A DNA stretch of 64,000 nt from Raillietiella orientalis (GCA_036172245.1 JAYWIR010000048.1:1-64000), one strand, 5' to 3'; positions 1 through 36,509 are shown, numbered from the stretch's first letter. Notes: generated by a model not told the origin, from the letters alone. Translations and numbers: made by a program.

Positions 1-1515
1 ATGAGATCGAACGGATCTCCTGAGGGCGGCAATGGTACAGGTGTGGAAGAGCGAAAAGTTGCGCTGTCGCCTACCTGCTTCGGCCGGCCGTCGAGGCCGC
101 AGCTCGGGGCGTGCAGTTCGACGATCACGGTCGTGTGGGCCAGCTGACTCTCAGGTGGTCCGATGCGATCGATCTAATCGTCACAAACGTGTACGCACCG
201 AGCGGCGCAAACCTGATGACTAGGAGGGCGAGGAAAGAGTTTTTCCTTGCCCTCCGCCGAGTCTGGCTGACCGAAACAGGCGTGCAAAATGCCCATTTGG
301 TTGCAGGCGATTTCAACGTTCGCCTGAAACCAGATGGGCAGAATCCCGAGCGTGACCTGGTCAACGAGGTGTGCATAGCGGTGCACACCTGTAATTTGTT
401 GGTTAGTGCATTGGAGATGGAAGACTGCATTGACCACGTGTTTCTTGACGAGCACCTGTGCCCTTGCGTGGGCATGCGTGGCAAGTTACCGTGCGAGTTG
501 TCCGACCATCGACCAATCGTGATTGAAATCCTTCCATGCGACAAGGGCCCACCCTTGTCAGCGTGCCGTTTGCCAGGGGACTGGCTGAAGCTCCCGGACA
601 CGACGGAACATCTCCGCACGTTTATACGGAGCTCCAGGATGCAGACACTCCAGGATTGCGACCGCTTCAAACGGTCGGTCTAGGATTTCTGCAACCAGTT
701 TCCTATGCACCGCCTACCTGCGAAATTTGGGACCGGGGTTCGTAACGAACGAGCCTACCTGCAGGCCCGTCCTTACGCCAGGACCCCCGACATCCGCAGG
801 CTGGCGCAATACAGAGCGGGAGCCGAGAGACAAGCCTGGCAGTCCGGATCGGCCAGCTTGCTGGACGATCAGGGCCTGCTGCGGAGTTACTGCTCCTCCC
901 TGTATGCCAGGGCACCTTTGGAGAGGAACGTCTCACGACTCCTGCTTCCGGAAGGCGCTCCTGCGATCGGGGAGGAGCAGAGAAAGACCCTCGACGAGTT
1001 TTTCACGACGGACGAGATCCTCTTAGCCATCGGAAAGCTCAAGAGGCGAAAGGCTCCAGAAAAGGACGGCCTGCCCGCGAAGTTTTATCAAACTTTCGCG
1101 GCTGAGCTTACCCCCCTGGTACAGCAACTCACCTTGCTGATACGCGAAACAGGTGTCGTTCCCGCCTCGTTTCGTTCGGCAAAGGTGCGGCTCCTTTCTA
1201 AGGGAGGAGATCTGAGGAGCATGAACAACTGGCGTCTCATCACAATCGTGAATGCGGACGCCAAGTTGCTGGCTAACCTTTGGGCAGAGCGGTTGAAACG
1301 GGTTGCCAACATCTTCGTCAGCCCGGAACAGACATATGCTGTTTTGGGCGAAGCATGGAGGCGAACCTGTTCCACGCTTCCACCTGGCTAGAGCTCCAAC
1401 AAAAAGCAGCTTGGTGCGCAGCCGGAATTCCGCTGCGTGCGCCGGCAAGGAGATGGCTTGTCGGGTGGGGGTGGAAGCCCTTACAATCGGAATCGACTTG
1501 CGGAAAGCATTCGAT
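1..1515 (+). mobile_element. LINE family A, ORF2 fragment (EN + N-half RT), decayed, cut at DLRKAFD; runs off window start
   Basis: ORFs 111-683 (NVYAP, GDFN, IDHV, SDH) and 705-1391 (KAPEKDG, WRLITIVNADAK, PEQTYA); ends at GIDLRKAFD (~1490-1515). Confidence 0.9.
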
Positions 1516-3327
1516 TTTCACCCGGATTTCGCCGGGGCGTTGATTATAAAACAAACATTTACAAAGACGTGCAGTGGCTGGACCGTTGCACCAGCTACGC
1601 ACAAAGAAACACAGAGCCTGCCGGGTCACCGTTTCGCAGACCGGTACGGTCCATCACGGCAGCAGGGGGAAGGGGGAAAAACAAAAAACAAAACAAAAAA
1701 GAAAATAAAAGTTGGGAGGGTAAGGGAAGGGATCCCTGTTGCTGGTGGGGCCGTTGCATCCTTTGCGGGATGCCGGCAAGCGCCTTCTGTATTCCTGGTC
1801 CTAGGTGGGGCCATCGGGACGCCCTCCTCAGGAACTGGGAGGCTGGCTGGATGGCACCCTGGTCGCGTTGTCCTCCCGTAGCCTTGCTCCAAGCGGTGAC
1901 GATCCCGCGTAGGCAGCACAAAGCTGCTAACGAGGCCGCTGGCCGAAGGGCGTCAGCAGCGAAGAGGGCTTTCAGTGCGTCCCTGGGGTTGCCGCAGGGG
2001 ATTTCGATGACTGCGGCAAAGCGAAACCAAAGGGGCCGAAGGGCAACACAATCCACTAGCAGGTGGGGCAGGGACTTCCTCCCTTCGGGAGGAGCCGCAC
2101 CTTTGCCCAACGAAACGAGGCGGGAACGTAACTCGTTTCGCGTATCAGCAAGGTGAGTTCATGAGCCAGAGGGGTAAGCTCAGCTTCGAAAGTTTGGTTT
2201 AACTCCGCGGGCAGGCCGTCCTCCCCTGCAGCCTTGCGCCTCTTGAGCTTTCCGATGGCCGAGAGGATCTCGTCCATCGTGAAAGGCTCGTCGAGGGTCT
2301 TTCTCAGCTCCTCCCCGATCGCTGGAGCACCAATCGGAAGCAAGAGTCGTGACACGTTCCTCTCCAAAGGTGCCCTGGCATACAGGGAGGAGCAGTAACT
2401 CCGCAGCAGGCCGCGGATTTGGGCGGGTGCCGAGTGCTCCTGGCCCTGATCCTCCAGCAAGCTGGCCGATCCGGACTGCCAGGCTTGCCTCTGGGATCAT
2501 GCTTTGTGTTCCGACAGCCTGCGGATGTCGGGGGTCCTGGCGTAACGACGGGCCTGCAGGTAGGCTCCTTCGTTACGGACCTTGGTCCCAAAACCCGTAG
2601 GTAGGCGGTGCAGAGGGAGCTGGTCGCAGAACTCCTGGACCGACCGTTTGAAGCGGTCGCAATCCTGGAGTGCCTGCATCCTGAAGCTCCGCATAAACGT
2701 GCGGAGATGTTCCGTCGCGTCCGGGAGCTTTAGCCAGTCCCCTGGCAAACGCCACGCTAACGAGAGAAGGCCCCTTACCCGCGGATGGATTTCAATCACG
2801 ATTGGTCGATGGTCGGACAACTCGCACGGTAACTTGCCGCGCTTGCCCACGCGAGGGCACAGGTGCTCGTCAAGAAACACGTGGTCAATGCTGTGTTCCA
2901 TCCCCGGTGCACTAACCAAAAAATTACAGGTGTGCATCGCCATACACACCTCGTTGACCAGGCCACGCTCGGGATTCTGCCCATCTGGTTTCAGGCGAAC
3001 GTTGAAATCGCCTGCAACCAGATGGGCATTCCGCACGCCTGCTTCGGTCAGCCAGTCTCGCCGGAGGGCAAGGAAAAACTCTTTCCTCGCCCTCCTGGTC
3101 ACCAGGTCCGCGCCGCTCGGTGCGTACACGTTTGTGACGATTAGATCGATCGCATCGGACCACCTGAGATTCAGCTGGCCGACACGACCGTCATCGTCGA
3201 ACCGCACGCCCCGAGCCGCGGCCTCGACGGCTGGCCGAAGCAGGTAGGCGACTCCGCAACTTTTCGCTCTCCCACACCTGTACCACAGTTGCCCTCTGCA
3301 TATCTGTTCGATCTCTTGCGCTCGTAC
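1516..3327 (-). mobile_element. LINE family A, 3' part: EN C-half, RT N-part, internal deletion (~2085), C-terminal domain, 3'UTR and terminus
   Basis: ORFs 2497-3207 (EN), 2056-2460 (RT start) and 1595-2110 (SLPHLLVDC); terminal hairpin motif 1515-1545; closely similar to 1-1200 in inverted orientation. Confidence 0.9.
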
Positions 3328-3520
3328 AGTGCAGACGTGTTTCCGCGTCTATCCGCGCCAACGATCGGGCAACCTTGTGCCTGCGTTTTCGCTCGCACTT
3401 GTGTGTTCCTGTGCAATCTGCCAAGTAGCATAGTGCAACAAGGCCAGTACACTGGATTGTGTGGAGTAGCAAGCCACTGGATGCACTTCAGCTACACTTG
3501 AAGCGGCCGCATCCTCCGTA

Positions 3521-4684
3521 ATGGTTTCCTCGCCTACGGTGAGGAGTTACGCCGCAGTTACCTCCCAAAGACCAGGACCCTGCGATGCGGAGTTCCAGGC
3601 ATATGTGTCATCAGGATACATGCCTGCACTCCGTTATAAGGTCAGTGGGCCCCTTAACGGGAGAATCGGTCGTGAGCTTAATGATGAGCTCGTCCGGATC
3701 GGCGTTCGCGAGGAGGAACTCCTTGCCATAATGCCTGCTGGCAGGATGGAATATACGAAGATTCGGTGCAGGAACGCAGCACTTGTGCAGCGCCTTCTCC
3801 GTACGCCGTTGACCATCAGTGGCAAGGAAGTCCTACTTACCGCGATGGACGACTCTTTTGTCGTTCAATTGTCCGACATCGAACCGGAAATCTCCGACCG
3901 CGATGTCGTAAGTGTGCTGGCGAAGTTCGCCACCGTGCACGCTCTGTGGAGGAGGCCAAATCCTCTAAAGGATTTCCCCTCTGTCCACATTGGACAAGCC
4001 TCCGCGCAGATCACCATCGCGAACAAGCGTGTAGTGCCTGAGCAGCTGCAGGTGAACGGCACGGTCGTTCACCTGTGGTTCATAGGCCAGACTCGCGCGT
4101 GCGAGCAGTGCGGCAAGGAGGGGCACCGAATTAAAGAGTGTCCCTCTCCAAGATGCCGCTATTGCAAAGATTCCGGGCACGAAATCAAAAAGTGCCTGGT
4201 ACTTGCAAGAAAAAGAGCTGCAGCGGAAATTCGTCGGGTTCAAGAGACCACTGCACGAAAAGCCGCAGCGGCAAATAAAAAACGTCGTCCGCAAAAACTC
4301 GCAAAAAACCACGAGCGATCCGCGGATGAAAAGAAAGCATCCCCGCCCGCAACGCCCCGAAAGGGGAAAGTCACGGCGGGGAAGCCAATTAAAAAGGAGC
4401 GCGAGGGTTTGACGCGTGCCGTGCCTTCCCTCTCTGCCGAACTCGCAGGCACCTTTCCGAACCTGGAACCAGGAAATCTCCGTAACACCCTGGAGGGAAA
4501 GGTAGGAAAACAGGAAGATCGCAACAGTGCGAAGACTTCTTGCCCCGTTCCGTTGTCCCTTCCGAGTTCCGGACAGCCCCACTGCAGCGCAGGCCCCACT
4601 GCAAAGGCTACGAAAGCCGTAAAAAGCAGCGTCGCGACGAGCAAAAGCACGCTGCATGCAGTCGCCCCATCGCCGACTCGGCAG
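3521..4684 (+). pseudogene. Family E ORF1 N-part (gag-like, two CCHC knuckles)
   Basis: CEQCGKEGHRIKEC and CRYCKDSGHEIKKC; frame resumes after the duplicated SPTRQ at 10328. Confidence 0.85.
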
Positions 4685-4811
4685 TTTTCCCCAAGTCCCA
4701 CGAGGGGTGGGGTAAATTTATTTTTCTAAAATTTTTCTATAAAAACATTCACACTACAATCTCATCCATACCATTAGCACTTTTCTTTACCACTATGAAG
4801 TCCTTGGGTTC

Positions 4812-7800
4812 TCACAAGTTCTGCACACATGGTGGGTTTGCTGCTGTTTGGTCCCGGGCGTCGTCTTCTATCCTCTTCAGGATGAATCGGTACGTCCAGG
4901 CTTGCATTTTTCCACAGTTTTTAATGCCGATTTCCCTCTTCAGGAGCCCTTGTAGGATCTCCATCGGTGGTGCGGCTCTTCTCGCTTTTTTCATTTTCCA
5001 CCACCGCACAAGTATGGCGGTGATGAAGAGGGCGATGGTCGTCCTCACGATGGGATTGTAACAGGGAACATTACCATTCCCCTGAAACATCCCGGCGAGG
5101 ATCTCCATTACGGACCTGGTGGTGAGTCCGATGATTTTTTTCAGGATCAGCCAGTCATGCAGCAGTGTGGGACACGTCAAGACGTGAAGTCTCGTGTCGT
5201 CGTCGCCACATGCTGCGCAGTCTCGGTCTTCCCGTCTTCCTGTGAAGTGCTGCAATCGGGACCCACTCTGGATTCCTCCGTGATAAAACATCAGGAGGTC
5301 ATCCTGGGTGCCCGGCGGAAGGTCACTCCTCCAGAGCGTCGTGCCAATCGCTAACAGGTTGATCCGATCACTCCCGTAGCGATCGGCGGCTTCCTGGAGG
5401 GCACTAATATCACTGTGTTCTTCCTGAATTAGTCTTCGGAGGTTTGTTTTGGTTACCCTGGACCACGCAAAGTCGTTGTGATTGAACCACACTTCGCGAG
5501 TCATGAGGGCAAACCTTCCTAACATCATCTCTATATACCTAAGTATACGAGTGTGATGTAGGTACCCTCCTCGTTTCCATTCCTGGATTCGTTGAAGGGT
5601 AACTCTGGACCGCTGGTGGATCCAGCTTCTCGTGTCCGGCGGGACAGGAAGCATCCAAGGGATCACCAGGATGGACTCGTCCTGCCAGAGTACCCTACTT
5701 CTCGGCACGATCTTGATTTTGTGCTTTCGCACCAGCCGTTGCTTAATCGTCCAGGTTGGGTCGATTTTTTTCCATTCGCCTCCTCGGCCTAGCAGCGCAG
5801 TCATCAGTCCTTTCGAGTTGTTCAACAACAACGCGTAGGCCCTATGCGCCGCATACGGCCAGTCATCCCAGTGAGTGGCAATGTCCAGGATGTGTCGCGT
5901 ATCCATGATTTCTATGGAGTGTGCAAGCGACTTCATCCCGGAACCGCCTTCTTCCCTGGGACGACACAGGGGTTTCAGTCTTACTCTTGGGCGATAGTGG
6001 CCCCAGAGTGTTTTTCTTTGCAGCTTGTCGAACTCCCTAGTAGTGTCCTTGTTTATCCTCGCGAAGGCCGCCCCGAAGAGCACTTTTGGAAGGAGTACTT
6101 CGTTCCATATGTTGGCCTTTCGCTTCATTCCAAGGTCCGTTCGGGTGTACTTGGCTGCTTCCTTGGGCGTTTTCCCTAGGATCTCGGTCCACAATAGCTT
6201 CGACGCGGAGACGTCGCCAATGTAGACACCCAGGTACTTGGCCTTGTCCACCGTTCGGAATCCTCTCCCCGCTATAGTGGAGAGATCGAGGATTCCAACG
6301 GGCAAGAGCTGGCTTTTCTGGGCGTTGATCTTTAGACCGAGGCCTTGATCCATCAGGTCTACCACATCCAGAAACGCTCGCTGATTTCTCTCTCCCTTGA
6401 TAAAGAAGAGTAGATCATCAGCGTATGCCAGATGGGTTAGAGGCTGGTTATCGATTGTAATGTTTTGCAGTCGTAAGCTCTTCTCGATAAAGGACCACAA
6501 CGCCTCCATATAGATGACGAACAGCATCGGACTTAGCGAATCGCCCTGCCGGACTTCCCGTTCCATCCGGATTGCTGCCGTCTCCTGGCCGTTGATCTTG
6601 ATCCGGCAGTACTGCCTCTGGAGAACCGCCCTCACGAAGTTGCTGAAGTGTTCCGGAAGCCCTAGATTCTCCAGAACCTTCAGCAGCATCCCGTGGTCGA
6701 TGGAGTCGAAAGCCTTCTCCATGTCAGTGAACACAAGCGCCAGATTCTCGCCGACGTATCGGCTGAGTCCGACGGTGGCCTAGGCGCACTTGACATTGTC
6801 CGACATGTGACGTCCAGGGACTGCACACGTTTGGATCTGAGAGATGAGTCTCGACATGACCTTGCCTAAGCGGTTGGACCAGATCTTCGCCGACCACTTG
6901 GCATCCGAGTTCAGGATCGAGATTGGCCTCCATTGAGCGACCTGCGTGAGGTCGCCTCCTTTTAGCAACAATCTCATCCGACTCTCGTAGAAGGAATGTG
7001 GAAGTCTTCCTTCTTCATGGATGCAGAGGGTCAACTGGTGGAACACACGCAGGTAGGCATGCAAGTACCGCTGATAGTGAGTGATGGGTACGCTATCAGG
7101 GCCCGCTGCCACGTCCTTGCGTAGTTGACCAAACGCAGTCTTCACCTCGTCTTCGGAGAATTCCTCCTCCAGTCTGTTCCGCTGGAGATCGTCGGTCCTC
7201 TTCTCGAGGTAGCTCAGAAAGGCCTGTTGACTAGAGCGACAGAGATGTTGTCGCCTAAAGTGTTTCGTGTAATGCCTTTGAAAGGCATCCACGATGTCCT
7301 CAGACGACTGTCGCTTTTGAACGTCGTACTGGATGCAGAAGATATCTGTTGCCAGATTTCTCTTCTCCAGCACTCCCACTTCCCCTTTTATGTTCTTCAA
7401 GACGTACCGACTCTCGTACTGATCGAAGTACTTTGAGTGTGAGCGATCTTGGATGTTCAGCTCCCGCTACGCCTCCTGCCTTAAGCACCTATCTCCGAAC
7501 TGCATGTTTGCAAACAGGTGTATCCTGTGTTTCAGGCTGTCCCAGTCGGCGACTCTTCGGATTGTTGTTGCCCTCAGAATCGCCTCCAGGACAGCCTGAT
7601 GTCGGGATGGGTTTCGAACCAGGCGGGCATGCTAATGAGCGCCGCCCTGGTGCCTTGCCTCCGCGGAGAATTCTCCGTTCTTAGGGAAAACCGCACCAGG
7701 CGGTGATCGGACACCGTGGTCATAATGTCTCGAAACCCCTGGATGCGATTCCCAAGTTCGGTGCTGTGCAGGACGTGATCGATCGGCTTGTGACTTGCAG

Positions 7801-8344
7801 TTCGCCACACCAGTCTGAACTCGGCGGATAACCGCTGATACGCCGTCCTTCCTCTGGCGTCCTCGGAGTGAGTGATCTCTTTTAATATGTTGAGATCCGC
7901 AGCAACAATCACGACGTCCTTGGGAGCAACCTTTTTACAAAGTGCTGCATGCAGCGCCTCCGCACAACGATGTTTTAGCCTGTGCGGTCCGTACACGTTC
8001 ACCAGGATGAGGTGAACAGTAGCGGACCAGGCGAGTCGCACGCCGATGATTCGTCCGGGTTGGGGACAGAACACTTCCAGAATAGTGGGGGCCAAGTTGT
8101 TCTTGATTAGGACCGCCACTCCCTGCGTGTTCCGTTCTCCCTCGCTGACGAAAATCTGCCCGTTGAATCGCCGTTCCATTTGCTGACTAATCTCGAGACC
8201 CATCTTGTGGGTCTCCTGCAGGCACACTATGTCTTGTTGTGCGATGGTCCGCACAATCCTTCTTCTTTTTCCCTGGTCGACCATACCGTTTACATTCCAG
8301 GAGGCGATGTTCAGCCTCCTGGCGGTCGATAGGGAAGAGGCCAT
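4812..8344 (-). pseudogene. Family F ORF2 (APE endonuclease-RT-Zn finger), broken into 3-4 pieces
   Basis: SWNVNG, CLQET, NVYGP, ADLN, IDHV, SDH; WRPISILNSDAK; DMEKAFD, RQGDSLSP, YADD, KYLG; CAAC..HVLTC. Stops at 7574 and 6780. Confidence 0.9.
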
Positions 8345-8357
8345 AAAAGGGGAAGAC

Positions 8358-10124
8358 CTATTTCTTGGCCTTCCTGAGCTTCTTCTGTCTGAGAGAGCGT
8401 GCTCTTCCAGACAATGAAGAAGCAGCGGGCTTCTCGCTGCCGGCGTCACTCTCTGTTCCGGTGAGGTCGGTTACTTCCGCCTCCTCCGTCGAGTGTTCGG
8501 CCCGCTCGATCAGTTTTCGAGATAGCGTCTCTATCTGGACCTTGGCGCAGAAGTTCGCCTTTACGTCGAGAAGCTGTTCCTCTAGCTTTTCGCGCTCGGT
8601 GACCTCCACAACCTGGTTGACCTTCTCCTGTGCATTGCAGATCTTCTGCAAGATTTTCTCTTGCTGGGGACCGCTCTGCACCTCTAGGACTACATTAGCC
8701 AGTGATGCCAACTCCTCCGTAGATTGCAGGGCCTCCTGTGACACCGGAGTGGCTTCGGCTTTTTCTTCTTCCGCGCCTTCCTGCGCTACCTCCATCTTCT
8801 CGCCTTCTTGCTCTTCACCTTCCAGGATAAGAGGGGTTTCTTGCTCCTTGACGAGCATCCTTCTCTTTCCTTTCTTCCCTACCTGTACAAAGCCGTCTTC
8901 CGATACCGGGACGGCTTCTTTCACCTTCTTCGGCCTTCCTGCCTTCTGAGGCTGTTCCGCCTCCTTGGTGTTTCTCTCTCTCACGGGAGAGAGACCACGA
9001 ATCCTTCTGCAGTTTGCAAACTCCGGACAGCTCCATTTGGCATGTCCGTGTTTCTTGCAGAAGGAGCACACCTCTCGCTGCGGGCAGTTTCGGACTTGAT
9101 GTCCTACTTTGCCGCAGCGGAAACAACGACACGTTGGGCAAGCGCCGGCCCTGTGGCCGAACTGCTTGCACCCGGTACACAATATCGGCTGTTGCCGGTA
9201 AAGCACGTTCACTCCCTGGGATTGTTCGTCAAGAACGGCTAATCCAGGGATCACAGCTCCCTCTTTCAACTTCATTTTGGCGATCATGTCGCCAGAAAAT
9301 ATTTTTTTAGAGAAGTTCTGAAAATCAAGGTCCAGAACTTCCCCAAACTGCTCCAAGTAATTCCACACCGCTAGTTGCGGTGTGAGGATGGAGATGCCGT
9401 TTAAAAAGACGGTTGTGTATGGCATCTCGCCAATACCACAAACCATCCGTCCTTGTATATTGATCCCCTTCTGGATCAATCGCTCTCTAATGTTTTCACA
9501 GTCTGTAAAGACTGTGAACCCGTTGTTCGATGGAATGATCGCCTGAATGCGATCAAATTCTATGTCCGTCTTGTCGAGGGACAAATAGACCTCCCTGATG
9601 TTATTAAATTTTATTAGCCCCGTCTTGAAGATAATGGGCTTCACGTTGGGGCCTATTTCCACTATTGGTCGGTCCACTTTTAGTACTTTTCCGCTAAGCG
9701 GCTTACCGAATTTCCTAGGTGGGTGGACACTCGCCTGTCCAGCCGCCACCGACGCATAAGAAAAGGGCTGCGACGCCGCAGCCGAACAAGATGGCGTCGC
9801 TCCCTGCACCGCGTGGACGCCCGCGGGTCCCGCCTGGGACGCCACCGCCGCGGGCGCAAACCTCGACGTTGCCGCCGTTACCGCCGCGGGCGGCACCCTC
9901 GGCATCGCCGCCGCAGGCGCGACCTTCCCCGCCGCGGGCACGATCCTCGGCATCGCCGCCGCGGGCACGACCTCCGCCGTCGTCGCGGTGGGCACGACCC
10001 TTGGCATCGGCGCCGCCGGCGCAGCATAGCCCGCCGCGGGCGCGATCCTCGGCATGCCTGCCACCACCTCGCCGTTGCCGCACGTTACCTCCATGGCTTC
10101 CATGGGGGACGACGGTCTCTCCAC
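8358..10124 (-). CDS. Family F ORF1, 588 aa, three CCHC knuckles, Ala/Pro repeats, acidic coiled-coil tail
   Basis: CTGCKQFGHRAGAC, CFRCGKVGHQVRNC, CSFCKKHGHAKWSC; uninterrupted ORF. Confidence 0.85.
   Translation of the reverse strand: MERPSSPMEAMEVTCGNGEVVAGMPRIAPAAGYAAPAAPMPRVVPTATTAEVVPAAAMPRIVPAAGKVAPAAAMPRVPPAAVTAATSRFAPAAVASQAGPAGVHAVQGATPSCSAAASQPFSYASVAAGQASVHPPRKFGKPLSGKVLKVDRPIVEIGPNVKPIIFKTGLIKFNNIREVYLSLDKTDIEFDRIQAIIPSNNGFTVFTDCENIRERLIQKGINIQGRMVCGIGEMPYTTVFLNGISILTPQLAVWNYLEQFGEVLDLDFQNFSKKIFSGDMIAKMKLKEGAVIPGLAVLDEQSQGVNVLYRQQPILCTGCKQFGHRAGACPTCRCFRCGKVGHQVRNCPQREVCSFCKKHGHAKWSCPEFANCRRIRGLSPVRERNTKEAEQPQKAGRPKKVKEAVPVSEDGFVQVGKKGKRRMLVKEQETPLILEGEEQEGEKMEVAQEGAEEEKAEATPVSQEALQSTEELASLANVVLEVQSGPQQEKILQKICNAQEKVNQVVEVTEREKLEEQLLDVKANFCAKVQIETLSRKLIERAEHSTEEAEVTDLTGTESDAGSEKPAASSLSGRARSLRQKKLRKAKK
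9860..10060 (-). repeat. 48-54 bp tandem coding repeats (MPR[IV][AVP]P[AT]A, 4 units) in family F ORF1
   Basis: MPRIAPAA / MPRVVPTA / MPRIVPAA / MPRVPPAA in the translation. Confidence 0.8.
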
Positions 10125-25739: not shown

Positions 25740-25818
25740 CGTCGTCAAAATGTACGACGCCAAGATGAAGCGGATGAAAGCACGGAGACGAGAGCGAAGA
25801 AAAACACGTCCGCACTCG

Positions 25819-26450
25819 ATTGAAATCTCCCGCTATCAGGTGAGCCTTCCGCACGCTCGTGTTAGCCAGCCAGTCGCGCTTCAGGGATGCAAGCAGCCTG
25901 GTACGGTTGCTGTATCCCTTTTGACCGGTTGTGGCGTACACATTCGTGACGATCAGATCGATCGAGTCGGACCAGCCGAGAGTCAGCTGACCGACCCGAC
26001 CGTCGTCATCGAAGCGCACGCCCTTCACGGCAGCGTCGATGGCCGGCTTCACGAAGAACGCGACCCCGCAGGTGTTGCGGATGCCGCATTGCCAGAACAG
26101 GCGACCCCCCGCGATCGTCTCGATCTCCTGGACGTCTGCCGCGGTGATCACGTGGATCTCCTGCAACAGGGCCAGGTCGAACTCTCGCAGGGTGTCGGCT
26201 GTATCTCGCCTGTTACCGTCGTCGCGCAGCCCGTTGACATTCCAACAGGCGGCGCGAATCCGACGGCGACTGGCGAGCCCAGGTGTACTCCTGGGAAGAT
26301 GGCAGTGCGGCGTCCGCCACCTGCTGGAGCGGGACGCTAGGTGGAGGAGAGGGGTCAGGTGCTGAAGGCAACTGGTCCCCCTCCTCCATAGGAAACTGTA
26401 CGTCGAGCGGGTCACACACAGGTGGGGTCGCGCCTACCTGATCGCCCTCT
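25819..26450 (-). mobile_element. LINE family B fragment: ORF1 tail + EN up to GDFN
   Basis: ACWNVNG...LLQEIH...NVYA...HLIAGDFN in ORF 25723-26415. Confidence 0.88.
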
Positions 26451-26478
26451 CCTCCACCTAGCGTCCCGCTCCAGCAGG
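26320..26478. repeat. Perfect 34-bp inverted repeat (26320-26353 / 26445-26478)
   Basis: cctgctggagcgggacgctaggtggaggagaggg and its exact reverse complement. Confidence 0.9.
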
Positions 26479-26481
26479 AAA

Positions 26482-28419
26482 ATGAAGCCAGTGCCCGCAG
26501 AAATGGAGGTGGAGGAATTCCCCTGCGTCGCAGGACCTTCTTCGGGAGGAGCGGAAGCCTCCACCGATCGTCCCTCGCCTCCAGCGAGAAGTTTTGCCGC
26601 CGTTGCTAAGGCAGCGGCGGCTCACGGAACCCCACCCGACGAGGCAGAGCTGCGGGCGTACGCCGCGAGCGGCTACAACCCCCCTCTGGCCTACAAGGTC
26701 AGTGCCGCGTACCGGGATGGGACGGGCAACCAGCTCTGGAGCGAGCTGGAACGCGTAGGGGTCCGAGAGGACGATCTCCTGGCAATTATGCCAGTGAGCG
26801 CGGTAGGCCATTGGGAGGTGCACTGCAAGGATGCAGCCCTCGTCCAGCGCCTACTGCGAACCCCCCTGGAAATCAGGGGTAAGGAGGTCGTCCCCTCGGC
26901 CCTGGATCAATCGTTCGTGGTCCAGCTCTTGGGCATTAGGCCGAGAATAACGGACCGCGACATCATTGTTGCACTCGAGGCGTTCGCCACAGTGCACGCG
27001 ATGTGGAGGCGCGCGAACCCGATCGATAAAGTCGCGCGCCTCTCTTGCGGACTCGCGACGGCGCGCGTCACCATGGACGACCGGAGGCTCATGCCTTCGC
27101 AGATCCTCCTCGGTGACGTCGTCGTCTATCTCCGGTTTGCCGGGCAAACCCCCGCTTGCGGCAACTGCGGGAAGGAGGGCCACCGTCCGCGGAAGTGCCC
27201 AACACGCAGTTGCCGATACTGTAAGCTGCTCGGCCACTCGATTAACGAGTGCGCCGAGCTGAAACGAAAGAGGAGGGCGAGAAACCCCCCCGCAACATCG
27301 CCGTCCGCGCCGACTCCATCCGCCCCGTCGTCGGGGAAGAAATCAGGCGCGAACGAGCATTCTCAGCGGAGAAGTGAAAAGTCCGCTTGCGCGGGCGATT
27401 CTCGGAGCAATGCTCCACAAAAACCCGCGCGAAAGGACAAGAAGCTCCTCCAGGCTGCTTCAGTAAAGCCCCGAGCGACCCAGCTCGCCGATAACATCGG
27501 GCAGGCTGCAAAAATACCACCGCCGCTTCCGTCCGCTCTCGCTCCGGAGCGAAATAGCGGTGGCACGCCCGGGAAGACCACCGGAGCGTCGAAAAAGGGG
27601 TCGCGCGCCCCTTTGCCCGCGACAGGCAAGCCGGCCACGGCGGGCCGAACGCTAGCAAAGGCTGAAAAGCCTCGCGCGACACCCGAGAATCCCGCCACTG
27701 TGCCCGCACCTCCCGGTAAGGAGGTGCAGAAGGCAGACGTGGCGAAGGAGACACTGGCCTCCATCGCCGTATCCGAGGCCTTGGAAAGGATGCGAAGGAC
27801 CCTGGAAGCCCTCGCGCCCAACCGGGGCAAACAGGAAGGCGGCGAGGATGGCTGGACCTTCGTCGGGGGAAAGAAGGAGCGCAAACCGCGCGATCCTTCC
27901 CGCTTCCCGATCCAAAAGGTAGGCGGGGTGAAGAGGCAACCCCGCGCGCCCAGAAAGGCGCAAGGAAAAGCCTCTGCTGCCGCCGCGCGCGCCGCCGCAA
28001 ACACCCGCGGCGAGAGGGGAGCTGCCGAAGCCGTGACCCCGAAAGGGGGATCGGCGACGAAGGCACCCTCTAAGAGTGCTGGACCTGCTCCGGGCTGCCA
28101 GCAAACAAAGAGGCAGGCGAAACGCCCGCCGCCGCGCGCGCGCAATTCGGACTCCGAGGTGGAGTCCGAGGGCAGCGCTAAGGCTCGCCAAGCCCCGGTC
28201 AAGGCCAGGGCTGCGCGCAAGCCAAAACTTGCCAGGCAAGAGCCTGATGCCGGGAACGGTTCCCGATGCTCCTCGGAGCCCGAGGCAATGGTCCTCGACT
28301 CCACCGAGCCGGCCGCGAGCGGCGCGGCGGGGACAGGAAGCGCTTGCGCTACCTCATCCGCCGTGCTCCCGGCTGATGCCTCGCCGGACGGGGCGAGGAA
28401 CGCACCTCCATGTCCGTAG
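26482..28419 (+). CDS. Family C ORF1 (two CCHC knuckles, long basic disordered tail)
   Basis: CGNCGKEGHRPRKC, CRYCKLLGHSINEC; open frame; first ATG at 26482 (start uncertain). Confidence 0.85.
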   Translation: MKPVPAEMEVEEFPCVAGPSSGGAEASTDRPSPPARSFAAVAKAAAAHGTPPDEAELRAYAASGYNPPLAYKVSAAYRDGTGNQLWSELERVGVREDDLLAIMPVSAVGHWEVHCKDAALVQRLLRTPLEIRGKEVVPSALDQSFVVQLLGIRPRITDRDIIVALEAFATVHAMWRRANPIDKVARLSCGLATARVTMDDRRLMPSQILLGDVVVYLRFAGQTPACGNCGKEGHRPRKCPTRSCRYCKLLGHSINECAELKRKRRARNPPATSPSAPTPSAPSSGKKSGANEHSQRRSEKSACAGDSRSNAPQKPARKDKKLLQAASVKPRATQLADNIGQAAKIPPPLPSALAPERNSGGTPGKTTGASKKGSRAPLPATGKPATAGRTLAKAEKPRATPENPATVPAPPGKEVQKADVAKETLASIAVSEALERMRRTLEALAPNRGKQEGGEDGWTFVGGKKERKPRDPSRFPIQKVGGVKRQPRAPRKAQGKASAAAARAAANTRGERGAAEAVTPKGGSATKAPSKSAGPAPGCQQTKRQAKRPPPRARNSDSEVESEGSAKARQAPVKARAARKPKLARQEPDAGNGSRCSSEPEAMVLDSTEPAASGAAGTGSACATSSAVLPADASPDGARNAPPCP

Positions 28420-31400
28420 CAGCAATGCGCGGTCTCGCTTCTTCCCGTCGCGTCCGAGTGGCCTGTTGGAACGTCAACGGGCTGCAGGACAACGAGAAGA
28501 GGCGATTGGTTGCCAACGTCTTGCGTGACTTCGATCTGGCCCTGCTGCAGGAGATTCACGCACTCTCCGAGCAGCAAGCGGCCGATCTGCAAGTTCGCGC
28601 AGGCGGGACGCTCCATTGGAGGTCAGGCTCCCAGAATACCTGCGGAGTCGCATTCCTTGTCCGGGGCAGGGTGGCGGGAGCGGTGCGGAGCGTTTGTTTC
28701 GACGAGGAAGGTCGTGTGGGCCAACTTGTTCTCAAGTGGTCCGAATCGATCAACCTTGTCGTCACGAACGTGTACGCGCCGAGCGGCTTCGCGCGTCACA
28801 CCGAGAAACTGGAGTTTTTTGAGAGACTGCGCGACCGCTGGCTCAGCAACTCCGGCCCCGACGTGGTTCACCTCGTAGCCGGGGACTTCAACGTCCACGC
28901 GCTATCGGAGGAGTCTCACCGTCGCCGGAAGAAACGGCTGGTGAACGAGGTGTGCGCGTCGGTGCACGCCTCGAATTTGCTGGCCGACGATCCCGGAATG
29001 CGTGCTTTGCCGGACCATGTGTTCCTCGACGATCACCTGCATTGTCGGGTGGGTCGAAGAGGTCCCGTGCCGTCCGAGCTTTCCGACCACTACAGGCTGG
29101 AGTTTGAGCTACTCCCGCCTGGCAAGGGCCCTGCGACGCACGTCTGGAGGTTGCCGGCCGACTGGTTGAGAAATCCGGTGGCTGCGGAGCACCTCCGCCA
29201 GCATCTGCGGACCTTTGCCGTTCGAGAGCTCGTGGACTGGGACGATCTGAAAAGATCGGTCCGCGAGTTCTGCAGCCGGTTCCCCTTGCGCTTCCCCGTG
29301 GCTTCGGGGAAGGCGTGGCCAACAGCAGAGAGTTTCTGCAGGCCCGCCAATTCTTTCGATGCCCGGACGTCCGGTACCTTGCGGAGTACAAGGCCAAGGC
29401 CGAGCGCCAGGTCTGGCAGTCAGGAGCAGCTTGTCTGCTCGACGACCAGGGCCTGGAGTGCTCGGGCGCGGCCGAAGTTCGCCGCCTCCTAAAGCGCTAT
29501 TACTCCTTGTTGTACGCTAGGGAGCCGACGGAACGCAGTCTCTCGGAGCTGCTTCTGCCGGCGGATTCCCCGGCGGTCGACGAGGAGGAACGCGCCACTC
29601 TTGACTTGCCCTTCACGGCGGGAGAAGTGTCTTCCGCCATAGCGGGCCTCAAGAAGCGCAAGGCGCCAGGTGAGGATGGTCTGCCTGCGGAGTTCTTCCA
29701 GTGCTTCGCGGCGGAACTCATCCCCCTGGTGCTGAGGCTTTCTGCGCTGATGCGAGAGACGGGCAATGTGCCGGCCTCGTTTCGCTCAGCAAGGGTGCGT
29801 CTGTTGCCGAAAGGCGGAGACATGCGCCATTTAAGCAACTGGCGTCCCATCACCTTGGTGAATGCGGACGTCAAGTTGTTCTCCAGGCTGTGGGTCGCGC
29901 GCCTGGGCAGGATCGCTGGATCCGTGGTAAGTCCGGAGCAGTCTTACGCTGTTCCCGGGCGGTCCATGGAGGCGAACCTGTTCTTCGCGCGCACGTGGCT
30001 CGAGCTGCAACGCTGCGTGGCGCACGACAGCCAGGCACCCGCGTCTGCGGCTGCCGAGGCTAGGCGTCGCTGCATTCGGCCTGGGGAAGCGCCGGGTGCC
30101 TTGGCGGTCGCGGTCGATCTCCGCAAGGCGTTCGATTGCGTAAATCAGGATCTCCTGCGGGAGCTCCTGGAACGCCTCGGTCTCCCGGTGCACCTCGTGG
30201 CGTATTTGCGCGCTTGCTGGCGCCACGCGCTCATTTCCATCTCTTTTAGCGGCTGCCACGTGTACGGCGTGCCGGTGCGGCGGGGCATCAGGCAGGGCGA
30301 CAGCTTAAGCCCGTTGCTCTTCAGCATCTTCTTTGAGTTGGTGCTGAGGGCGTACAGGCTGACGGTGGCCAACCTGCCGAGCTCTTGTCCAGGAACGCCG
30401 TCCGTGGCGGCCTATGCTGACGACCTGCTCCTCCTCTTACCCATGACCACCCCGGCATCCAGTCTCGAGGATTTCTTCGAGCTGATTCGCCGGGGGGCGG
30501 GCATGAGCGTAAACCGGAGCAAGAGCGTGGTCGTACCTATTGGTGCGGCGTGGGAGGGGCAGTCCGACTGGATCCGCCTGGGGATCCCGACCGCTTCCTC
30601 CGTGCAATATCTGGGCGTTCCGCTGGGGAACATCAGCCCAATGGAAGTGTGGTCGGACTGCCTTCGGAAGGCTTCGAATGCCCTGAGCCCGTTCCACCAT
30701 GGCAGGTTCGTCCTGCCGGAGCGGGCCACGATATGGAACACCTTCGTTGCCCCTCTCTTGCGCCCCCTGCTTTTTGTTTGCCCGCCCCCCTACTCGGCCA
30801 AGCTCCAGGCGCACAGCCTGTTGAGGAACGCTCTGTGGAGACCTGCGAGGTCCAGGATCCGCCTCAAAGACTTGGCGGCTCCGCTACGGGATGCTGGCTT
30901 AGGCATCCTGACGCTGGAGAGAATCGAGCTGCAGGTGCAGCTTCGGATGTTGGCCCTGTGCGCCAACCTTTGGTCCACTCCGTGGTGCGCTCCCGCGCGC
31001 CTGCTTCTGCGGCGCTGCACAGGCAGCGATGGACTTCTGTCGCTGCGGCCGCACACGGAGCGCGCCACGAGAAGCTTCGGTTTCCCCTTGAAACCGCTGT
31101 ATCGGCTCCTGGAAGCCCAGGGATGGATCTCCTGCCGCCCAACGAACTTTCAAGCCTGGCGGCAGGAACCGTTGCATGGCTGGGCAAAGCACCAGGATGT
31201 TTCCCTCCTGGAACTCCGTTGCGCTCACCTCTCCCCGTATTGCACGGTGGATGAGGTGTGCAACAGCCAGGAGAAGTGGACCCGCCTGGCCGTCACCCCC
31301 CTCGAAGACGCACTGTCAGCCCTTAGGGCAAGAGATGACAGTTGCGAACCGGCGAGATGGGAGGTCGCCTGCACCATCGCAGGAACAACGCGACCTATTG

Positions 31401-31984
31401 GCGGCTGGAAGACTTGCGAGCTGGCGGACGCCGCCACGCCTCGCCACGTTTCGAAGGGACTCCTTCGGTGGAGCGAACACTTGAGTGTGCCCCTTGAAGA
31501 ACTTGTGGTTCCTCCCTCGTGTCTGAACACTTCTGTGTTCCCCCTTTCGTGGAAGCAGGACGTGATTATGCTGGTGCATTGGGGTTTTCACTCCAGCCAG
31601 CGCACGAACCTTGTTTCCGGAAGAGTCGTCTCCCCAAACTGTAAGCGGTGCGGGGAAGTGGAAACGCTCCCGCACCTGCTCCTGGACTGCGGTGCCCTTC
31701 TAGGACTCTGGCGGAGGCTGGCCTCAGCTCTCCTGCACCAGGGGGACACCGCGAGGGAGTTGATGCGCCGCTTCTTCTCGCCAGGCGGCCTGTCATTGGG
31801 TGCTGTCGTTGCAACCGTGTGTTGCACCCGCGCCATCGACAAGGCCCACCGAGAGTTGGAGAAGCTGGCCATCCTTCGTCAGCCCACCGGATTAGCCAGC
31901 GCAAACATGTCGTCGGCTGCCCAGTGGGCCCATCTGCCACAGGGCGTAAGGAGAGAGATCGCCGGCATCCATCGCCCGTTTTGA
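28410..31984 (+). pseudogene. Family C ORF2 EN-RT-Zn finger, one frameshift near 29290
   Basis: ORFs 28410-29492 and 29315-31984; all EN and RT motifs present; CKRCGEVETLPHLLLDC. Confidence 0.92.
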
Positions 31985-32401
31985 AAGGAAGGAACGGATT
32001 TACCAAAGACCCCTGTCCCCTGCCCTCCATATTTTTCTTTTATTTTTTTATATAGTAGTGTGTTTGTGGTCCCTTCCCTCCCGTTCCGGACTTTCGGCAT
32101 ACCGACCTGCGTGTCGGGGATCCCACCCCCTTCGTCTCTTGTTTTCCCCTTTGTCCGGGAACCCTGTTCCCGGATAGTTTATAATAAACGTCCCGGCGCA
32201 CCAGGGTGACAAACAGCCAACCCCCCGCGTTCGTCTCGATCTCCTGGACGTCTGCCGCGGTGATCACGTGGATCTCCTGCAACAGGGCCAGGTCGAACTC
32301 CCGCATGGTGTCGGCTGTATCTCGCCTGTTACCGTCGTCGCGCAGCCCGTTGACATTCCAACAGGCCGCGCGAATGCGACGGCGACTGGCGAGCCCAGGT
32401 G

Positions 32402-34153
32402 TTACTCCTGGGAAGATGGCAGTGCGGCGTCCGCCATCTGCTGGGGCGGGACGCTAGGTGGACGAGGGGGGTCAGGTGCTGAAGGCACCTGGTCCCCCTC
32501 CTTTATCGGTGCCGGCGCGTCGGCCGGATCACCCGCAGGTGGAGTCGCGCCTACCTGTTCGCCCTCCTCCATGGGGGCGGGATGTTCAGGGTCGGCGCCT
32601 GCAGGGGGGACTTCACCCCCCTGTTCACCCTCCGCCATGGGGGTGGCCGGATCGACGGCTTCCGAGTGTGGGAATTCCTCCTCCGAATTTCCCACGCTGG
32701 CGACGGTTTCCGTCTTCTCCTCCTCGCTGGTGGAGGGGAGGCGCCTCCTGGGCTTCTGGGACTTGCGACCAGACTTCCTGGGGGGTGCCTCCGAGGAGGA
32801 GGATGTACTTCCGGCCCCCATGTCTAACTCACCTGTGGGGGCCTTCTTCGCCGGAGCCGGCCTTCGCACGGCCTTGCGCGAGGGGTTCTCACGCTCGGCC
32901 AGCGTGACCGCGAGCTCCTCCGCCACCTGCGCGAACGCGGCGTCCGCGGCTTCGTCCGCCGCTATGTCGCGCGGCTCACCCTCTGTGTAAACAGAGGGTT
33001 CGCCGTCGCGAGCCTCGGGCGCAGCGGAAACGGCAAGGGGAGGATCGACGCGCCGGGTGGCCATCTCGGGAACGACGATTCGTTCCAGTGCCACCGTGCA
33101 CCTGCGCAGAGTTTTCGAGCGCGGACCGGGTTTTTTCGGCTTACCGGCCGTTTTGCGCTCTTCGCTCTCCGCGGGTGGGAGTTTCCTTGGCTTTCTGGCC
33201 TCTACAAGCTGCCATCCCTCTTCGCCTTCCACCGTTTCAGAAGGTTTATCCTCCGGCTTACGCGCCGGAGGTTGAGGTGTTGGCAGCTTGTGCTGGCCCT
33301 TTTCTACTTTAGGTCTAGAGACCTTTGAAGCACGTTTCCCCTGCGCTTTTTTCGCGGCAGGGGGAACCAAGGTGGGGCGTTTGGGGCACACGCGCCGAAC
33401 GTGGCCCCGCTCCCCGCACAAATGGCATTGTATATTGGGACACCTTTTAGGTAGGTGACCCACGGTATCACAATGCCCGCAATACCGGGGCTTCCCTACA
33501 TACCACAGGTCGACGTTTTCTTGCGCCACCTGTAGTTTGTGGGGAAGCCCACAATTCTCCCTTACGGTAACCCACGCTGCAGCCTGCCCACCAAAAAGGC
33601 TATCGAAGCCGTCGAAAATGGAGGGTTTCGGCCACAGTGCGTGCACCTCACCGTACTTCCGTAATTCCTCACCAACCGCTGACCGCGTCATGCGGCTGGT
33701 GATGCCAGTCATGTGGACCACCACGGAGCGGTCCATTGATACTGGCAGGATCTTGCGGCCGTCTACGTTCAGCGGCGCATGGATTAGGCGGTGAGTTAAG
33801 GTGACATCTTTGCAGACCACCTCGACCCGCTGCCCGCCGCTGAGGACGGAGAGGCCGTCCAGATCCTTCTCATTAACATTCGCGTCCTTCAACGCTTTGC
33901 TGAAGGCGCGCGCTGTCCGGCCTTCGAACAAGTTGCCTACCTGGTAGACAAGCGATGGCTTGTACCCGGAGGCCTTGCATGCTGCCATCTCCGCCATGGC
34001 TTCTGCGCTGGGCGCGGCCACCATGGCGCTCCATGTCCTCTGCGTGTCCGGGGATGATTCCGGGGCGGCTGCCCCTGCTCCAGTAGGCTGTGGGGGCGAA
34101 CTAGCCTTGCCCACTCCCACCTCCATCGCGGTGTCCTCTGGCGTCGTGGCCAT
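32402..34153 (-). CDS. Family B ORF1, intact
   Basis: MATTPEDTAMEV start; CGHCDTVGHLPKRC, CHLCGERGHVRRVC. Confidence 0.85.
   Translation of the reverse strand: MATTPEDTAMEVGVGKASSPPQPTGAGAAAPESSPDTQRTWSAMVAAPSAEAMAEMAACKASGYKPSLVYQVGNLFEGRTARAFSKALKDANVNEKDLDGLSVLSGGQRVEVVCKDVTLTHRLIHAPLNVDGRKILPVSMDRSVVVHMTGITSRMTRSAVGEELRKYGEVHALWPKPSIFDGFDSLFGGQAAAWVTVRENCGLPHKLQVAQENVDLWYVGKPRYCGHCDTVGHLPKRCPNIQCHLCGERGHVRRVCPKRPTLVPPAAKKAQGKRASKVSRPKVEKGQHKLPTPQPPARKPEDKPSETVEGEEGWQLVEARKPRKLPPAESEERKTAGKPKKPGPRSKTLRRCTVALERIVVPEMATRRVDPPLAVSAAPEARDGEPSVYTEGEPRDIAADEAADAAFAQVAEELAVTLAERENPSRKAVRRPAPAKKAPTGELDMGAGSTSSSSEAPPRKSGRKSQKPRRRLPSTSEEEKTETVASVGNSEEEFPHSEAVDPATPMAEGEQGGEVPPAGADPEHPAPMEEGEQVGATPPAGDPADAPAPIKEGDQVPSAPDPPRPPSVPPQQMADAALPSSQE
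32485..32655 (-). repeat. 66-bp (22-aa) PMxEGxQ repeats in family B ORF1 tail
   Basis: PMAEGEQ..., PMEEGEQ..., PIKEGDQ spaced 22 aa apart. Confidence 0.75.
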
Positions 34154-34240
34154 TGGACACCGACGATGTACACAAAACACCACACACATTAAAGCGCTTT
34201 CCTACTACTCTTGAGGAGTGAAGGAAAAACACGTCCTCCA

Positions 34241-35590
34241 ACTGGCCGTGGAGGGCGCTGGCTGCACGAGGCTGCTAGCTCCTCCGCGGCACGCGCGAAG
34301 GCTACGTCATCGATGTTGGTGTCGATGACGGACGCCGCCGCCGGCTCCCTATCCTCGCTGTTGACAGAGTCAACAGAGGGGTTGTCGTCGGTAGCGGGGA
34401 GTTCTTTTTCGCAGCGGTCGGGAATGCGCTCCACGACAACGCTGCATTCTTTAATTTGCTCGCTTGCCTGCTGTTTTTTCTAGCGGTACGCGAGCTTTTT
34501 CTCCATCCTCCTCTCCTTCTTTGATTTTCTGGCCGTAGCCACCTGCCACCCAGGCTCCTGGCTATTTCCCTCGACTTGTTCGGCGTTGTTCACCAGGGTC
34601 TCGAGTGCGGCCTGGGCCTTGGGCGCGGGTGGCACAGCCTTCGCGGCAGCTTTCGCCGCCAGCCTTTTCTGCAGAAGCCGGGCGCGTTTTTTAATGTTTC
34701 TCTTGGAAACCACCCGCACTGCTGCTTTTGGGCACACCTTTCTCCTGTGGCCCATTGTGCCGCATACTTGGCACTGCACGTTGAGACACCTCTTTTTGAG
34801 GTGGCCCGACGTATTGCAAAAGCCACAGTATTTCGGCTTCCCCACATACCAGAGGTCGACGGTTTCGCCTTCGACCACTGGTTTGTGGGGAAGAGTGCAG
34901 TTCTCCCGAACGGTCACGCGCGCAGCAGTGATGCCGTGTTGCAGCCCCGTGTAGTCCTCGAAAGGACTAACTTTCGTCCACTGCGCGTGGACCGTTCCGT
35001 ATTCCTCCAGCGCGGCGCAAACCTGTGCCTTGCGCATCCGCGCGTTAACACCTAACAGGTGGACCACCATGCTGCGGTCCGCCGTAATAGGGAGGAGCCT
35101 GCGCGTCTTCATCACCACGGGGGTTTTAAGGAGTCGTTGGGCCATCTCTGCTTGTTTGCAGATGACCTCAACGTACTGACCCCCGCTGCGGATGGTCATA
35201 GCGCTGAGCTCCTCCTCTTTCACATCGAGAGCGCGCATGCCCTTCGAGAAGGCGCGCGCGCTCTCTAAAGAATATAAATTGCCTACCTTGTAGAACTATG
35301 AGGGGTTGTACCCCTCCTCTATATAGGCCGACAATTCCGCCGCGGCTGCAGGTGATGGCGCCGACACAACGGCGCTCCACGCTTGCGCTGCAGCGGGGAC
35401 CGATTCTGTGGGGGCGCATGCCCCACCTCCTTCGCCTCCGGGGGCTACGTTGCCGCTGCCCCCTGGCCATCCCTGGTGGTCGCGTCAGGCATCGCTGCCT
35501 GATCGACCACCGAACCACACGACGCTTGCACTGGGGGAGACTTCCTGGCACGAGGAGCACCGAGAAAACACGTCCACCCTGGAGCACGCC
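34241..35590 (-). mobile_element. LINE family A 5' part (5' end + ORF1 N-two-thirds)
   Basis: 5' motif 35564-35575; ORF 34480-35238 with CGFCNTSGHLKKRC, CQVCGTMGHRRKVC; FARAAEELAA at 34189-34434. Confidence 0.85.
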
Positions 35591-36509
35591 AGGCGGTCGA
35601 TTGCGTAAATCAGGATCTCCTGCTGGAGCCTTTAGAACGTCTCGGTCTCCCGGTGCACCTCGTGGCGTGTTTGCGCGCTTGCTGGCGCCACGCGCAAATT
35701 CTTATCTCTTTTAGAGGCTGCCACGTGTACGGCGTGCCGATGCGGCGGGGCATCAGGCAGGGCGGCAGCTTAAGCCCGTTGCTCTTCAGCATCTTCTTTG
35801 AGTTGGTGCTGAGGGCGTACAGGCTGACGCTGGCCAACCTGCCGAGCTCCTTTCCAGGAACGCCGTCCGTGGCAGCCTATGCTGACGACCTGCTTCTCTT
35901 CTTACTAATGACCACCCGGTGGAGATGTCTCCCTAAACTGTGAGCGGTACGGGGAAGTGGAAACGCTCCCGCACCTGCTTTTCGACTGCGGTGCCCTCCT
36001 AGGACTGTGGCGGAGGCTGGCCTTAGCTCTCCTGCACCAGGGGGACACCGCGAGGGATTTGATGCGCCGCTTCTTCACGCCAGGCGGCCTGTCCTTAGGT
36101 GCTGTTGTTGCAACCGTGTGTTGCACCCGCGTCATCGACAAGGCCCACCGACAACTGGAGAAGTTGGCCATCCTCCGTCAGCCCACCGGCTTAGCCAGCG
36201 CCAGCATGTCGTCGGGTGCCGAATGGGCGCATCTTCCAGAGAGCGTGAGGAACGAGATCGCCGGCATCCATCGCCCGTTCTGAAAGGAAGGAACGGCAGA
36301 ACCAAAGACCCCTGTCCCCTGCCCTCCATATCTTTATTTTTATTTTTTCTATTCGGTGTATTTGTGGTCCCCTCCCTCCCGTTCCGGACTTTCGGCATAC
36401 CGACCCGCGTGTCGGGGATCCCACCCCCTTCTTTACTCTATGTGCTTTGTCCGGGAACTTTGCTCCCGGATTGTTTGTTATAAACGCCTCGGCGCACCTG
36501 GGTGATAAA
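35591..36509 (+). mobile_element. LINE family C 3' fragment from KAFD, internally deleted (~35920)
   Basis: Matches 30126-30450 and then 31625-32213; YADD; terminus 36479-36509. Confidence 0.9.

Follow-up and report, generated by a model that had tools for sequence, protein, structure and literature searches.

The stretch analysed here, hereafter the window, comprises 64,000 nucleotides of Raillietiella orientalis (GCA_036172245.1, JAYWIR010000048.1:1-64000), read on one strand from 5' to 3'. Sequence derived from long interspersed nuclear elements (LINEs) makes up nearly all of positions 1 to ~50,000, where the GC content is 55-65%, and past ~50 kb the GC drops to 45-51%. The element that principally concerns us is H (family A in the original prediction), a minus-strand LINE extending from 35583 to 1517 in four pieces and interrupted by other LINEs, whose two ends adjoin the K-A-F-D region of reverse-transcriptase (RT) genes belonging to two different LINE families.

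The LINE nest and the element H

In a domain search, PF03372 and PF00078 were both present in the open reading frames (ORFs) at 15835-17934(-) and 21076-23850(-), and RVT_1 occurred in five more, so that the long ORF2 frames consist of Exo_endo_phos plus RVT_1; the ORF1 frames, for their part, contain weak CCHC knuckles. With an apurinic/apyrimidinic-endonuclease (APE) domain followed by the RT in ORF2, the elements of the nest belong among the non-long-terminal-repeat retrotransposons of the APE type, that is, LINEs, and they exhibit the target-site duplications, the constant 3' end, and the variable 5' truncation of that class (the copies E30, c40, and c47 being 5'-truncated). The closest solved structure is the human LINE-1 (L1) ORF2p, at an E value of 1.1e-44, with R2 reaching only 3.5e-14; and in the structure-based comparison the local A-V-D-L-H-K-A-F-D matches the S-I-D-A-E-K-A-F-D of L1, which segment we take to be RT motif A, whose first aspartate is catalytic. 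The relatives of the nest proteins in the protein database are distant, the best, on a 2.9-kb contig, being 57% identical and the others ~25%, and they carry PF13966 (zf-RVT). A metagenome scan with the ORF2 of the nest element E22 gave 39 matching stretches, of which 2 were confirmed, both 38-40% identical and on contigs of <1.8 kb.

The 5' start (CGAGNGCG)GACGTGTTTTTC was seen ten times in the window, an eleventh, slightly deviant, standing at 3334, and the 3' end AAACGCCCCGGCG..CCGGGTGA(N)AA seven times, which termini are common to all the families in the window except one. Because of these shared terminal motifs the ends of the elements can be placed to the base. An A tract is absent from all seven 3' ends, each of which closes in ...CCGGGTGA(N)AA, with 2-3 A; a 3' poly(A) tail is typical of the L1 clade. 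Among the 7 pairs of the predicted terminal hairpin none has compensatory changes, so that this hairpin is without covariation support. The pieces of H, its flanks, and the elements nested directly or indirectly within it are as follows.

1..1516, plus strand: L, the left host flank, an A-type ORF2 fragment that spans APE residue ~65 to RT motif A and is truncated where the window starts
1501..1516, plus strand: the 16-bp overlap as it stands on the left, CGGAAAGCATTCGATT, A-type at the diagnostic positions 6 and 9
1517..2076, minus strand: H piece b, C-terminus of ORF2, 3' untranslated region (UTR), and terminal motif ...AACGCCCCGGCGAAATCCGGGTGAA
2077..3324, minus strand: H piece c, from APE residue 62 to RT residue 477
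3325..14910, plus strand: E12full, nested full-length C-type element, 5' start 3334, 3' end 14910
14911..15457, minus strand: H piece g, comprising the C-terminal portion of ORF1 and APE residues 8-68
15458..34244, minus strand: D, nested D-type element, with its 3' end at 15458-15715 and the pieces j (25819-26456) and l (32212-34244)
15710-19903, 19912-25818, and 26457-32211: E16, E22, and E30, respectively, the elements inside D
34245..35583, minus strand: H piece m, with the 5' terminus (its core GACGTGTTTTC at 35574), the 5' UTR, and the N-terminal portion of ORF1
35584..35586: three filler bases, matching neither the 5' leader consensus nor E30
35587..36507, plus strand: R, the host flank on the right, consisting of C1-type ORF2 sequence from RT motif A on, with a C-type 3' UTR and its 3' end at 36507
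35587-35602, plus strand: right copy of the 16-bp overlap, CGCCAGGCGGTCGATT, the first 16 bp of R
47148..49198, plus strand: c47, an ORF2 fragment of the A type whose motif-A site, at 47405, is uninterrupted

Pieces m and g constitute exactly contiguous halves of ORF1 against all three reference proteins tried, covering residues 101-494 and 496-569 of that of u, 31-437 and 439-516 of that of l in D, and 1-203 and 205-281 of that of p (u and p being two further elements of the nest). Pieces g and c, for their part, overlap at APE residues 62-68 and share the duplication ATCTCTTGCGCT(C/T)G, 13/14 identical, that surrounds E12full at 3311-3324 and 14911-14924. Because m and g are contiguous and g and c share the flanking duplication of E12full, H represents a single element; pieces c and b are joined by an internal deletion at a GGGAG microhomology. 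Piece b is 89% identical to positions 48935-49190 of c47, and its 3' terminus aligns with the ends of c40 and of the element at 15458. By its predicted content H is one L1-like LINE, with an ORF1, an APE-RT ORF2, no poly(A), and a putative conserved stem-loop motif at the 3' end. The proposal that a single family-A element, with others nested inside it, occupies 1517-35583 in antisense within RT motif A was thereby substantiated piece by piece.

The two junctions at RT motif A

At the left junction the host flank, positions 3-1349 of which map by tblastn to residues 65-524 of the E22 ORF2, ends ...AAAGCATTCGATT, reading GAC TTG CGG AAA GCA TTC GAT T (D-L-R-K-A-F-D) with its last base at 1516, and from 1517 onward there follows the reverse complement of the LINE 3' end ...AACGCCCCGGCGAAATCCGGGTGAA. 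That 3' terminus is genuine, since it can be aligned base for base with those of six further elements of the window, and the break that had been claimed beside the KAFD 12-mer (1505-1516) of an A-type host falls precisely at 1516|1517. At the right junction the 5' start GACGTGTTTTC stands at 35574, from which position the usual 9-nt leader puts the terminus at 35583; and after the filler bases the RT homology of R begins at 35587 with CGCCAGGCGGTCGATT GCG TAA AT (R-Q-A-V-D-C-V-N). The C-type KAFD region expected at the H 5' end is therefore there, the border previously placed at 35590/35591 being a few bases off. R also has an internal deletion joint at 35917/35918.

The end of the left flank and the start of the right one coincide at one RT position, with an overlap of 16 bp that is 11/16 identical, and R begins 16 bp upstream of the position where L ends, which arrangement is the geometry of a target-site duplication. 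In the uninterrupted c47 the L-like and the R-like parts are contiguous (47151-47411, then 47408-47726). By a rough estimate of our own, a random place in the nest would show such a fit with a probability of ~8 copies x 31 positions / 100,000 strand-positions, or 0.25%. The two 12-mers that the original prediction had set side by side are indeed 9/12 identical, a similarity that says no more than that the RT motif is homologous in both. The host RT gene was nicked on its sense strand just after ...TTCGATT, in the K-A-F-D codons, the 3'-OH adjoins the exact 3' end of H, and H is oriented antisense to the host RT gene. The contigs of a sequencing run sharing 0.06 of the sampled words covered 30/30 bins of positions 1-20000 at 85-99% likeness, and among the matches listed there was nothing on 1516/1517.

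Regarding the family membership of the flanks, over the 260 bp before the site, on its left, the identity of L is 87% with c47 as against 60% with E30 (55-61% with E30, E12, E16, and E22), and in the 315 bp to the right R is 93% identical to E30, 77-78% to the other C types, and 69-70% to c47 and c40 (69% to c47). R is C-type throughout, the 3' UTR included, with identities to E30 of 92.4% (331 bp) and 88.0% (590 bp); each of the two overlap copies carries the bases of its own family at diagnostic positions 6 and 9; and among the other six RT copies no switch of partner across the site was found. L is thus A-type and R C1-type, and the two belong to different families right up to the junctions, as had been claimed. 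A host that was already an A/C chimera before the insertion was considered and rejected: a single 16-bp target would have yielded identical copies, while 5 of the 16 positions differ, both of the diagnostic ones included. Because the duplication copies would have begun identical, a single chimeric host is very unlikely, our rough binomial estimate being 1-2%.

Site re-use and competing explanations

H would have been integrated by target-primed reverse transcription, in antisense, into the RT gene of another LINE. If both junctions date from integration itself, then RT genes of two different families have been cut at one motif-A site, presumably by the machinery of the H family. The present arrangement could then have arisen in either of two ways: from two H copies in neighbouring hosts, through a later recombination deleting the sequence in between, or from a single integration that bridged two cut copies; E12full, D, E30, E22/E16, and the element B would have become nested in H afterwards. 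A crossover would find excellent substrates in same-orientation H copies of adjacent hosts and would leave L|H|R. Same-site inserts such as R1/R2 in neighbouring rDNA units are good substrates for unequal crossing-over; and, as with those, a crossover here would leave one insert between the flanks of two target copies. Unlike the rDNA units, which are identical, the target copies in the window come from different LINE families, and the crossover is one that we infer. We put forward two same-site hits at RT motif A tentatively, at somewhat less than an even chance.

The odds that the LINE families of the nest prefer sites in one another are raised by the circumstance that three other families re-use a site. 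The positions concerned in the C1 family are these.

32200-32230, 36495-36525, and 26085-26110: the stretches with the same-nucleotide C1 ends and the host copies
36508..38542, minus strand: p, the D-type element hit by the element of R in its APE gene, antisense, at residue ~72, which is the site of E30 in l

In two D-type APE genes R and E30, ~90% identical, have their ends, in antisense, at one and the same nucleotide, CCAG|AACAG. The host copies of these C1 elements group as ((j,l),p), with identities of 92.2, 85.5, and 86.1% and 32 site patterns against 8 and 10; and since j and l flank E30, this grouping indicates that the R|p joint is independent of E30|l and no copy of it. A conversion or segmental copy of E30+l as the origin of R+p was ruled out by that host tree, together with a conservation profile common to the D copies: the raised identity beside the C1 joint is common to all the D pairs, including those with the copy t, and hence is not a conversion tract. 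Likewise rejected was a 3' transduction or composite retrotransposition, since canonical 5' termini close both l and p, whose 5' halves share just 56-78% identity. E12full, a third C-type element, ends 26 bp from the C1 site, in the APE gene of H.

Two H-like ORF1 genes with an identity of just 55-70% adjoin, at one and the same point (34225-34260 and 42930-42960), the starts of the D copies l and s, themselves ~92% identical, and the step in identity falls at the end of the element. E22, for its part, lies exactly at the site of E16, in the APE GDFN codons, with a perfect 8-bp duplication (19904-19911 and 25819-25826, 8/8). The 3' duplication copy of E22 runs straight into the 5' end of E16, so that these two elements, 97% identical, form a head-to-tail tandem. 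In all, the same-site counts were one 3' junction for H (its 5' junction lying at that site in a second host), 2/2 3' junctions for C1, 2/3 assessable 5' junctions for D, and 2/2 for the E22 type, which tallies come from one window and are far too small in number.

From these cases we infer that the LINE families of the nest may prefer specific sites in each other's ORFs. A still broader view, which we consider doubtful, would see in the nest a guild of L1-like LINE families, each homing to its own short site in the coding sequence of another LINE family: H to RT motif A (KAFD), antisense; C1 to the APE N-terminal region of the D type, antisense; D to a fixed point of the H-type ORF1; and E22 to the APE GDFN codons. 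The conserved catalytic motifs of rivals would in such a guild offer landing sites that are stable, harmless, and constantly renewed, and mutual nesting would enlarge the cluster. Homing would place the 3' ends of H beside AATCGAA(C/T)GC, the antisense of motif A, and those of C1 beside AACAGGCGACC, in antisense in the D-type APE.

Several observations weigh against two same-site hits at motif A and against homing. The window contains one H-family element with ends, which leaves n = 1 for the 3' junction. The 11-mer site is unoccupied in 6/8 of the RT copies that carry the homologous site; among these empty sites the 11-mer is exact only in E30, which is younger than H, with 1 mismatch in E12, E16, E22, and c47 and 2 in c40. 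Six insertions of different families share a nick context of only ~S|AWY, with no extended conservation around the nick site across those six; and, the nick context being so loose, the endonuclease alone cannot account for the re-use of a site. Related 3' ends, those of c40 and D, are located elsewhere, these belonging to other families with 3' UTRs ~70% identical to that of H; three related 5' ends adjoin ORF2 fragments at residues 264 and 495 and at APE residue 62; and the D copy t sits at another position of ORF1. The first of those 5' ends, at 41619-41628 and adjoining the c40 ORF2 at ~residue 264, corresponds to the different site that the original prediction had itself entered as a caveat. 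Finally, the nearest relative of L is piece c, the RT piece of H itself, as a fold-back origin of L, discussed below, predicts. Of the landing-site reading, then, the antisense position in motif A and the different families of the flanks have stood; homing to KAFD as a general site is plausible and rests on the one H element of the window, and the accompanying idea of disabling competitors is speculation. We also tried the notion that the antisense KAFD region mimics a LINE 3' end, and rejected it, the best uncorrected p in 35 comparisons being 0.04-0.08, which is not significant.

Among the alternatives the one that survives best, unlikely as we hold it to be, is a single insertion into a C1-type RT gene, of which R would be the surviving right half, with a subsequent replacement of one flank: after a break at the 3' junction, fold-back, inverted-repeat copying of the RT of H from the motif-A bases would have made L. 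With H lying antisense in an RT gene, the host flank and the RT of H itself are inverted repeats. L and piece c are mutually nearest relatives among the available copies, at 90.0% over 1206 bp in inverted orientation (over a shared 147 bp the identities are 86.4% for L-c, 83.0% for L and the A-type fragment w, and 76.9% for c-w); the inverted repeat that they form is spaced by only the 3'-terminal 560 bp of H; other rearrangement joints are present in the window at 15710, 35917/8, 43594/8, and 49198/49205; and the coincidence of the breakpoints would be explained without site specificity. Yet at most 7 original bases (AATCGAA) would have guided the fold-back, A-type bases beginning with the 8th base off the junction; ordinary homologous conversion is unlikely at an A/C identity of 55-70%; and no account would be given of the remaining same-site pairs. 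In a mirror version, R would have been replaced by copying from a C1 element, but E30+l is excluded as the donor by the grouping ((j,l),p), and the guiding bases would number at most 5.

We consider improbable a coincidence in which an unrelated C1 fragment, R, was brought to the 5' end of H by a rearrangement and starts at motif A by chance. The nest has ~17 ORF2 breakpoints, in loose clusters at residues 62-74, 495-500, and 1070-1078, and the junction pair was picked out after the sequence had been viewed, both of which circumstances make a chance match easier; but the orientation, the order, and the 16-bp overlap fit a target-site duplication, for which a random neighbour has the ~0.25% chance estimated above, and nothing is missing from the 5' terminus of H, next to which stand only 3 filler bases, as would suit an integration joint in its original state.

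To an assembly that merged two nests within H or its nested repeats, so that L|H and H|R would be two loci, we likewise give little credence: E16 and E22 are near-identical (97% over 4.2 kb) and the sequencing-run contigs break at repeat borders such as 3324 and 19911, but the flanks match across every nested insertion (m/g, and the duplications at 13/14, 12/12, and 8/8), and the 97% repeats lie inside D, away from the outer flanks. The chimera between 15 and 35 kb against which the original prediction had warned left no sign at the nested joints, though a mis-join inside a single piece may have occurred; and a merge would not refute targeting, since it implies two H insertions at the same motif.

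Other features of the nest and comparison with known systems

The remaining features that could be delimited within and around H are the following.

3443-4729 and 10958-14540, plus strand: ORF1 and ORF2 of E12full, interrupted by the element B
4685-10315, minus strand: B, inside E12full and flanked by a duplication
3324-3340, 35574-35590, 41619-41645, and 47147-47151: head-to-head joints

The duplication around B is CCGACTCGGCAG, at 4673-4684 and 10316-10327 (12/12), and that around D a 10-bp one, 8/10 identical (15446-15455 and 34245-34254). B belongs to another LINE family, with a protein identity of only ~29% in the RT; its 3' end is AT-rich and lacks the shared terminal motif. E30 is flanked by a direct duplication of the host of 360 bp (26096-26456 and 32212-32571), 92.2% identical, the other duplications measuring 8-16 bp. 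At 15698-15715 E16 breaks off at ORF2 residue 746, and joined to it there follows a 255-bp 3' terminal fragment, 82% identical to that of c40; we read this joint as one deletion that took the 3' part of E16 along with the middle of its host D.

At the head-to-head joints listed, four full-length 5' ends meet opposite-strand 5'-truncated fragments of ORF2; twin priming was rejected as an explanation, its geometry being unsuited. One of these 5' ends, that of u (47148-47175), adjoins the A-type RT fragment c47 at the N-A-D-A-K motif, and the A-type fragment w ends ~24 bp past the N-A-D-A-K position and lies inverted at the far end of c47 (49198-49230), via TTAATT; the arrangement of u, c47, and w looks like a duplication-type overlap followed by an inversion. 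A second head-to-tail pair is formed by c40 and p, the 3' end of the former and the 5' end of the latter standing on the same strand with only 18 bp (38543-38560) between them. Past the edge of the nest ~12 kb (49500-62400), with a GC content of 45-51%, are without long open frames and contain only decayed ORF1-like traces, at 50154-50768, 56216-56536, and 62161-62625. Beside the 5' end of the last D-type copy, ~40 bp at 63937-63976 end in the shared 3' motif (plus strand) and may be an extremely 5'-truncated insertion.

With respect to known systems, the Zepp and ZeppL elements of Coccomyxa and Chlamydomonas form nested GC-rich LINE clusters of 1.5-42 kb, with 61% GC as against 53% for the genome, according to the available text of one report (PMC3446292), and in that text and in the accessible portion of a preprint are said to 'target existing copies' (PMC3446292; preprint 10.1101/2020.06.13.149070). 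Like those clusters the nest in the window is GC-rich and self-nested, ~1-50 kb at 55-65% against 45-51% GC, the likeness being one of description. Unlike them, the LINEs of the window have at their ends a predicted stem-loop motif and 2-3 A instead of poly(A), and several distinct families are present, each apparently re-using a site of its own. The Tx1 clade, for its part, comprises APE LINEs at defined sites in other transposons, namely, in the consulted part of the source, Tx1 in the Tx1D piggyBac, Tx1-Mar in Mariner-N4_AMi, and Tx1-9_AMi in a Harbinger (PMC4494074); and 'transposons' are listed among the targets of LINEs in an excerpt of another (PMC4640811). The elements of the window resemble the Tx1 clade in being L1-related APE LINEs at a defined place inside another transposon family, but the published targets of the Tx1 type are DNA transposons, RNA genes, and microsatellites, with hundreds of copies, whereas the putative targets in the window are LINE coding motifs (RT motif A, the APE N-terminus, and ORF1), with 1-2 events each. 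Celine, a LINE that colonises the centromeres of poplar, has 52/58 of its full-length copies in other retrotransposons, each with a unique target-site duplication and, as far as the available text of the report extends, with no shared site (PMC11288735); at variance with Celine, several junctions in the window coincide to the nucleotide. A limited literature search retrieved no case of LINE-in-LINE homing to coding motifs.

The known targets of target-specific LINEs are ribosomal-, small-nuclear-, and transfer-RNA genes, telomeric repeats, microsatellites, and DNA transposons, to which group the behaviour of H would possibly add a candidate variant; the locus hints at repeated homing to one site, short of proof. 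If two same-site hits at motif A did occur, a family homing to the motif-A codons of other LINEs would be using a target held constant by purifying selection in all active competitors, which strategy would provide a sequence-level mechanism for the self-nesting growth of Zepp-like clusters, candidate centromeres in green algae, and would make this nest a testable case of transposon-versus-transposon interference. If the left flank was instead produced by fold-back copying, the locus would illustrate how antisense LINE-in-LINE insertions seed rearrangements.

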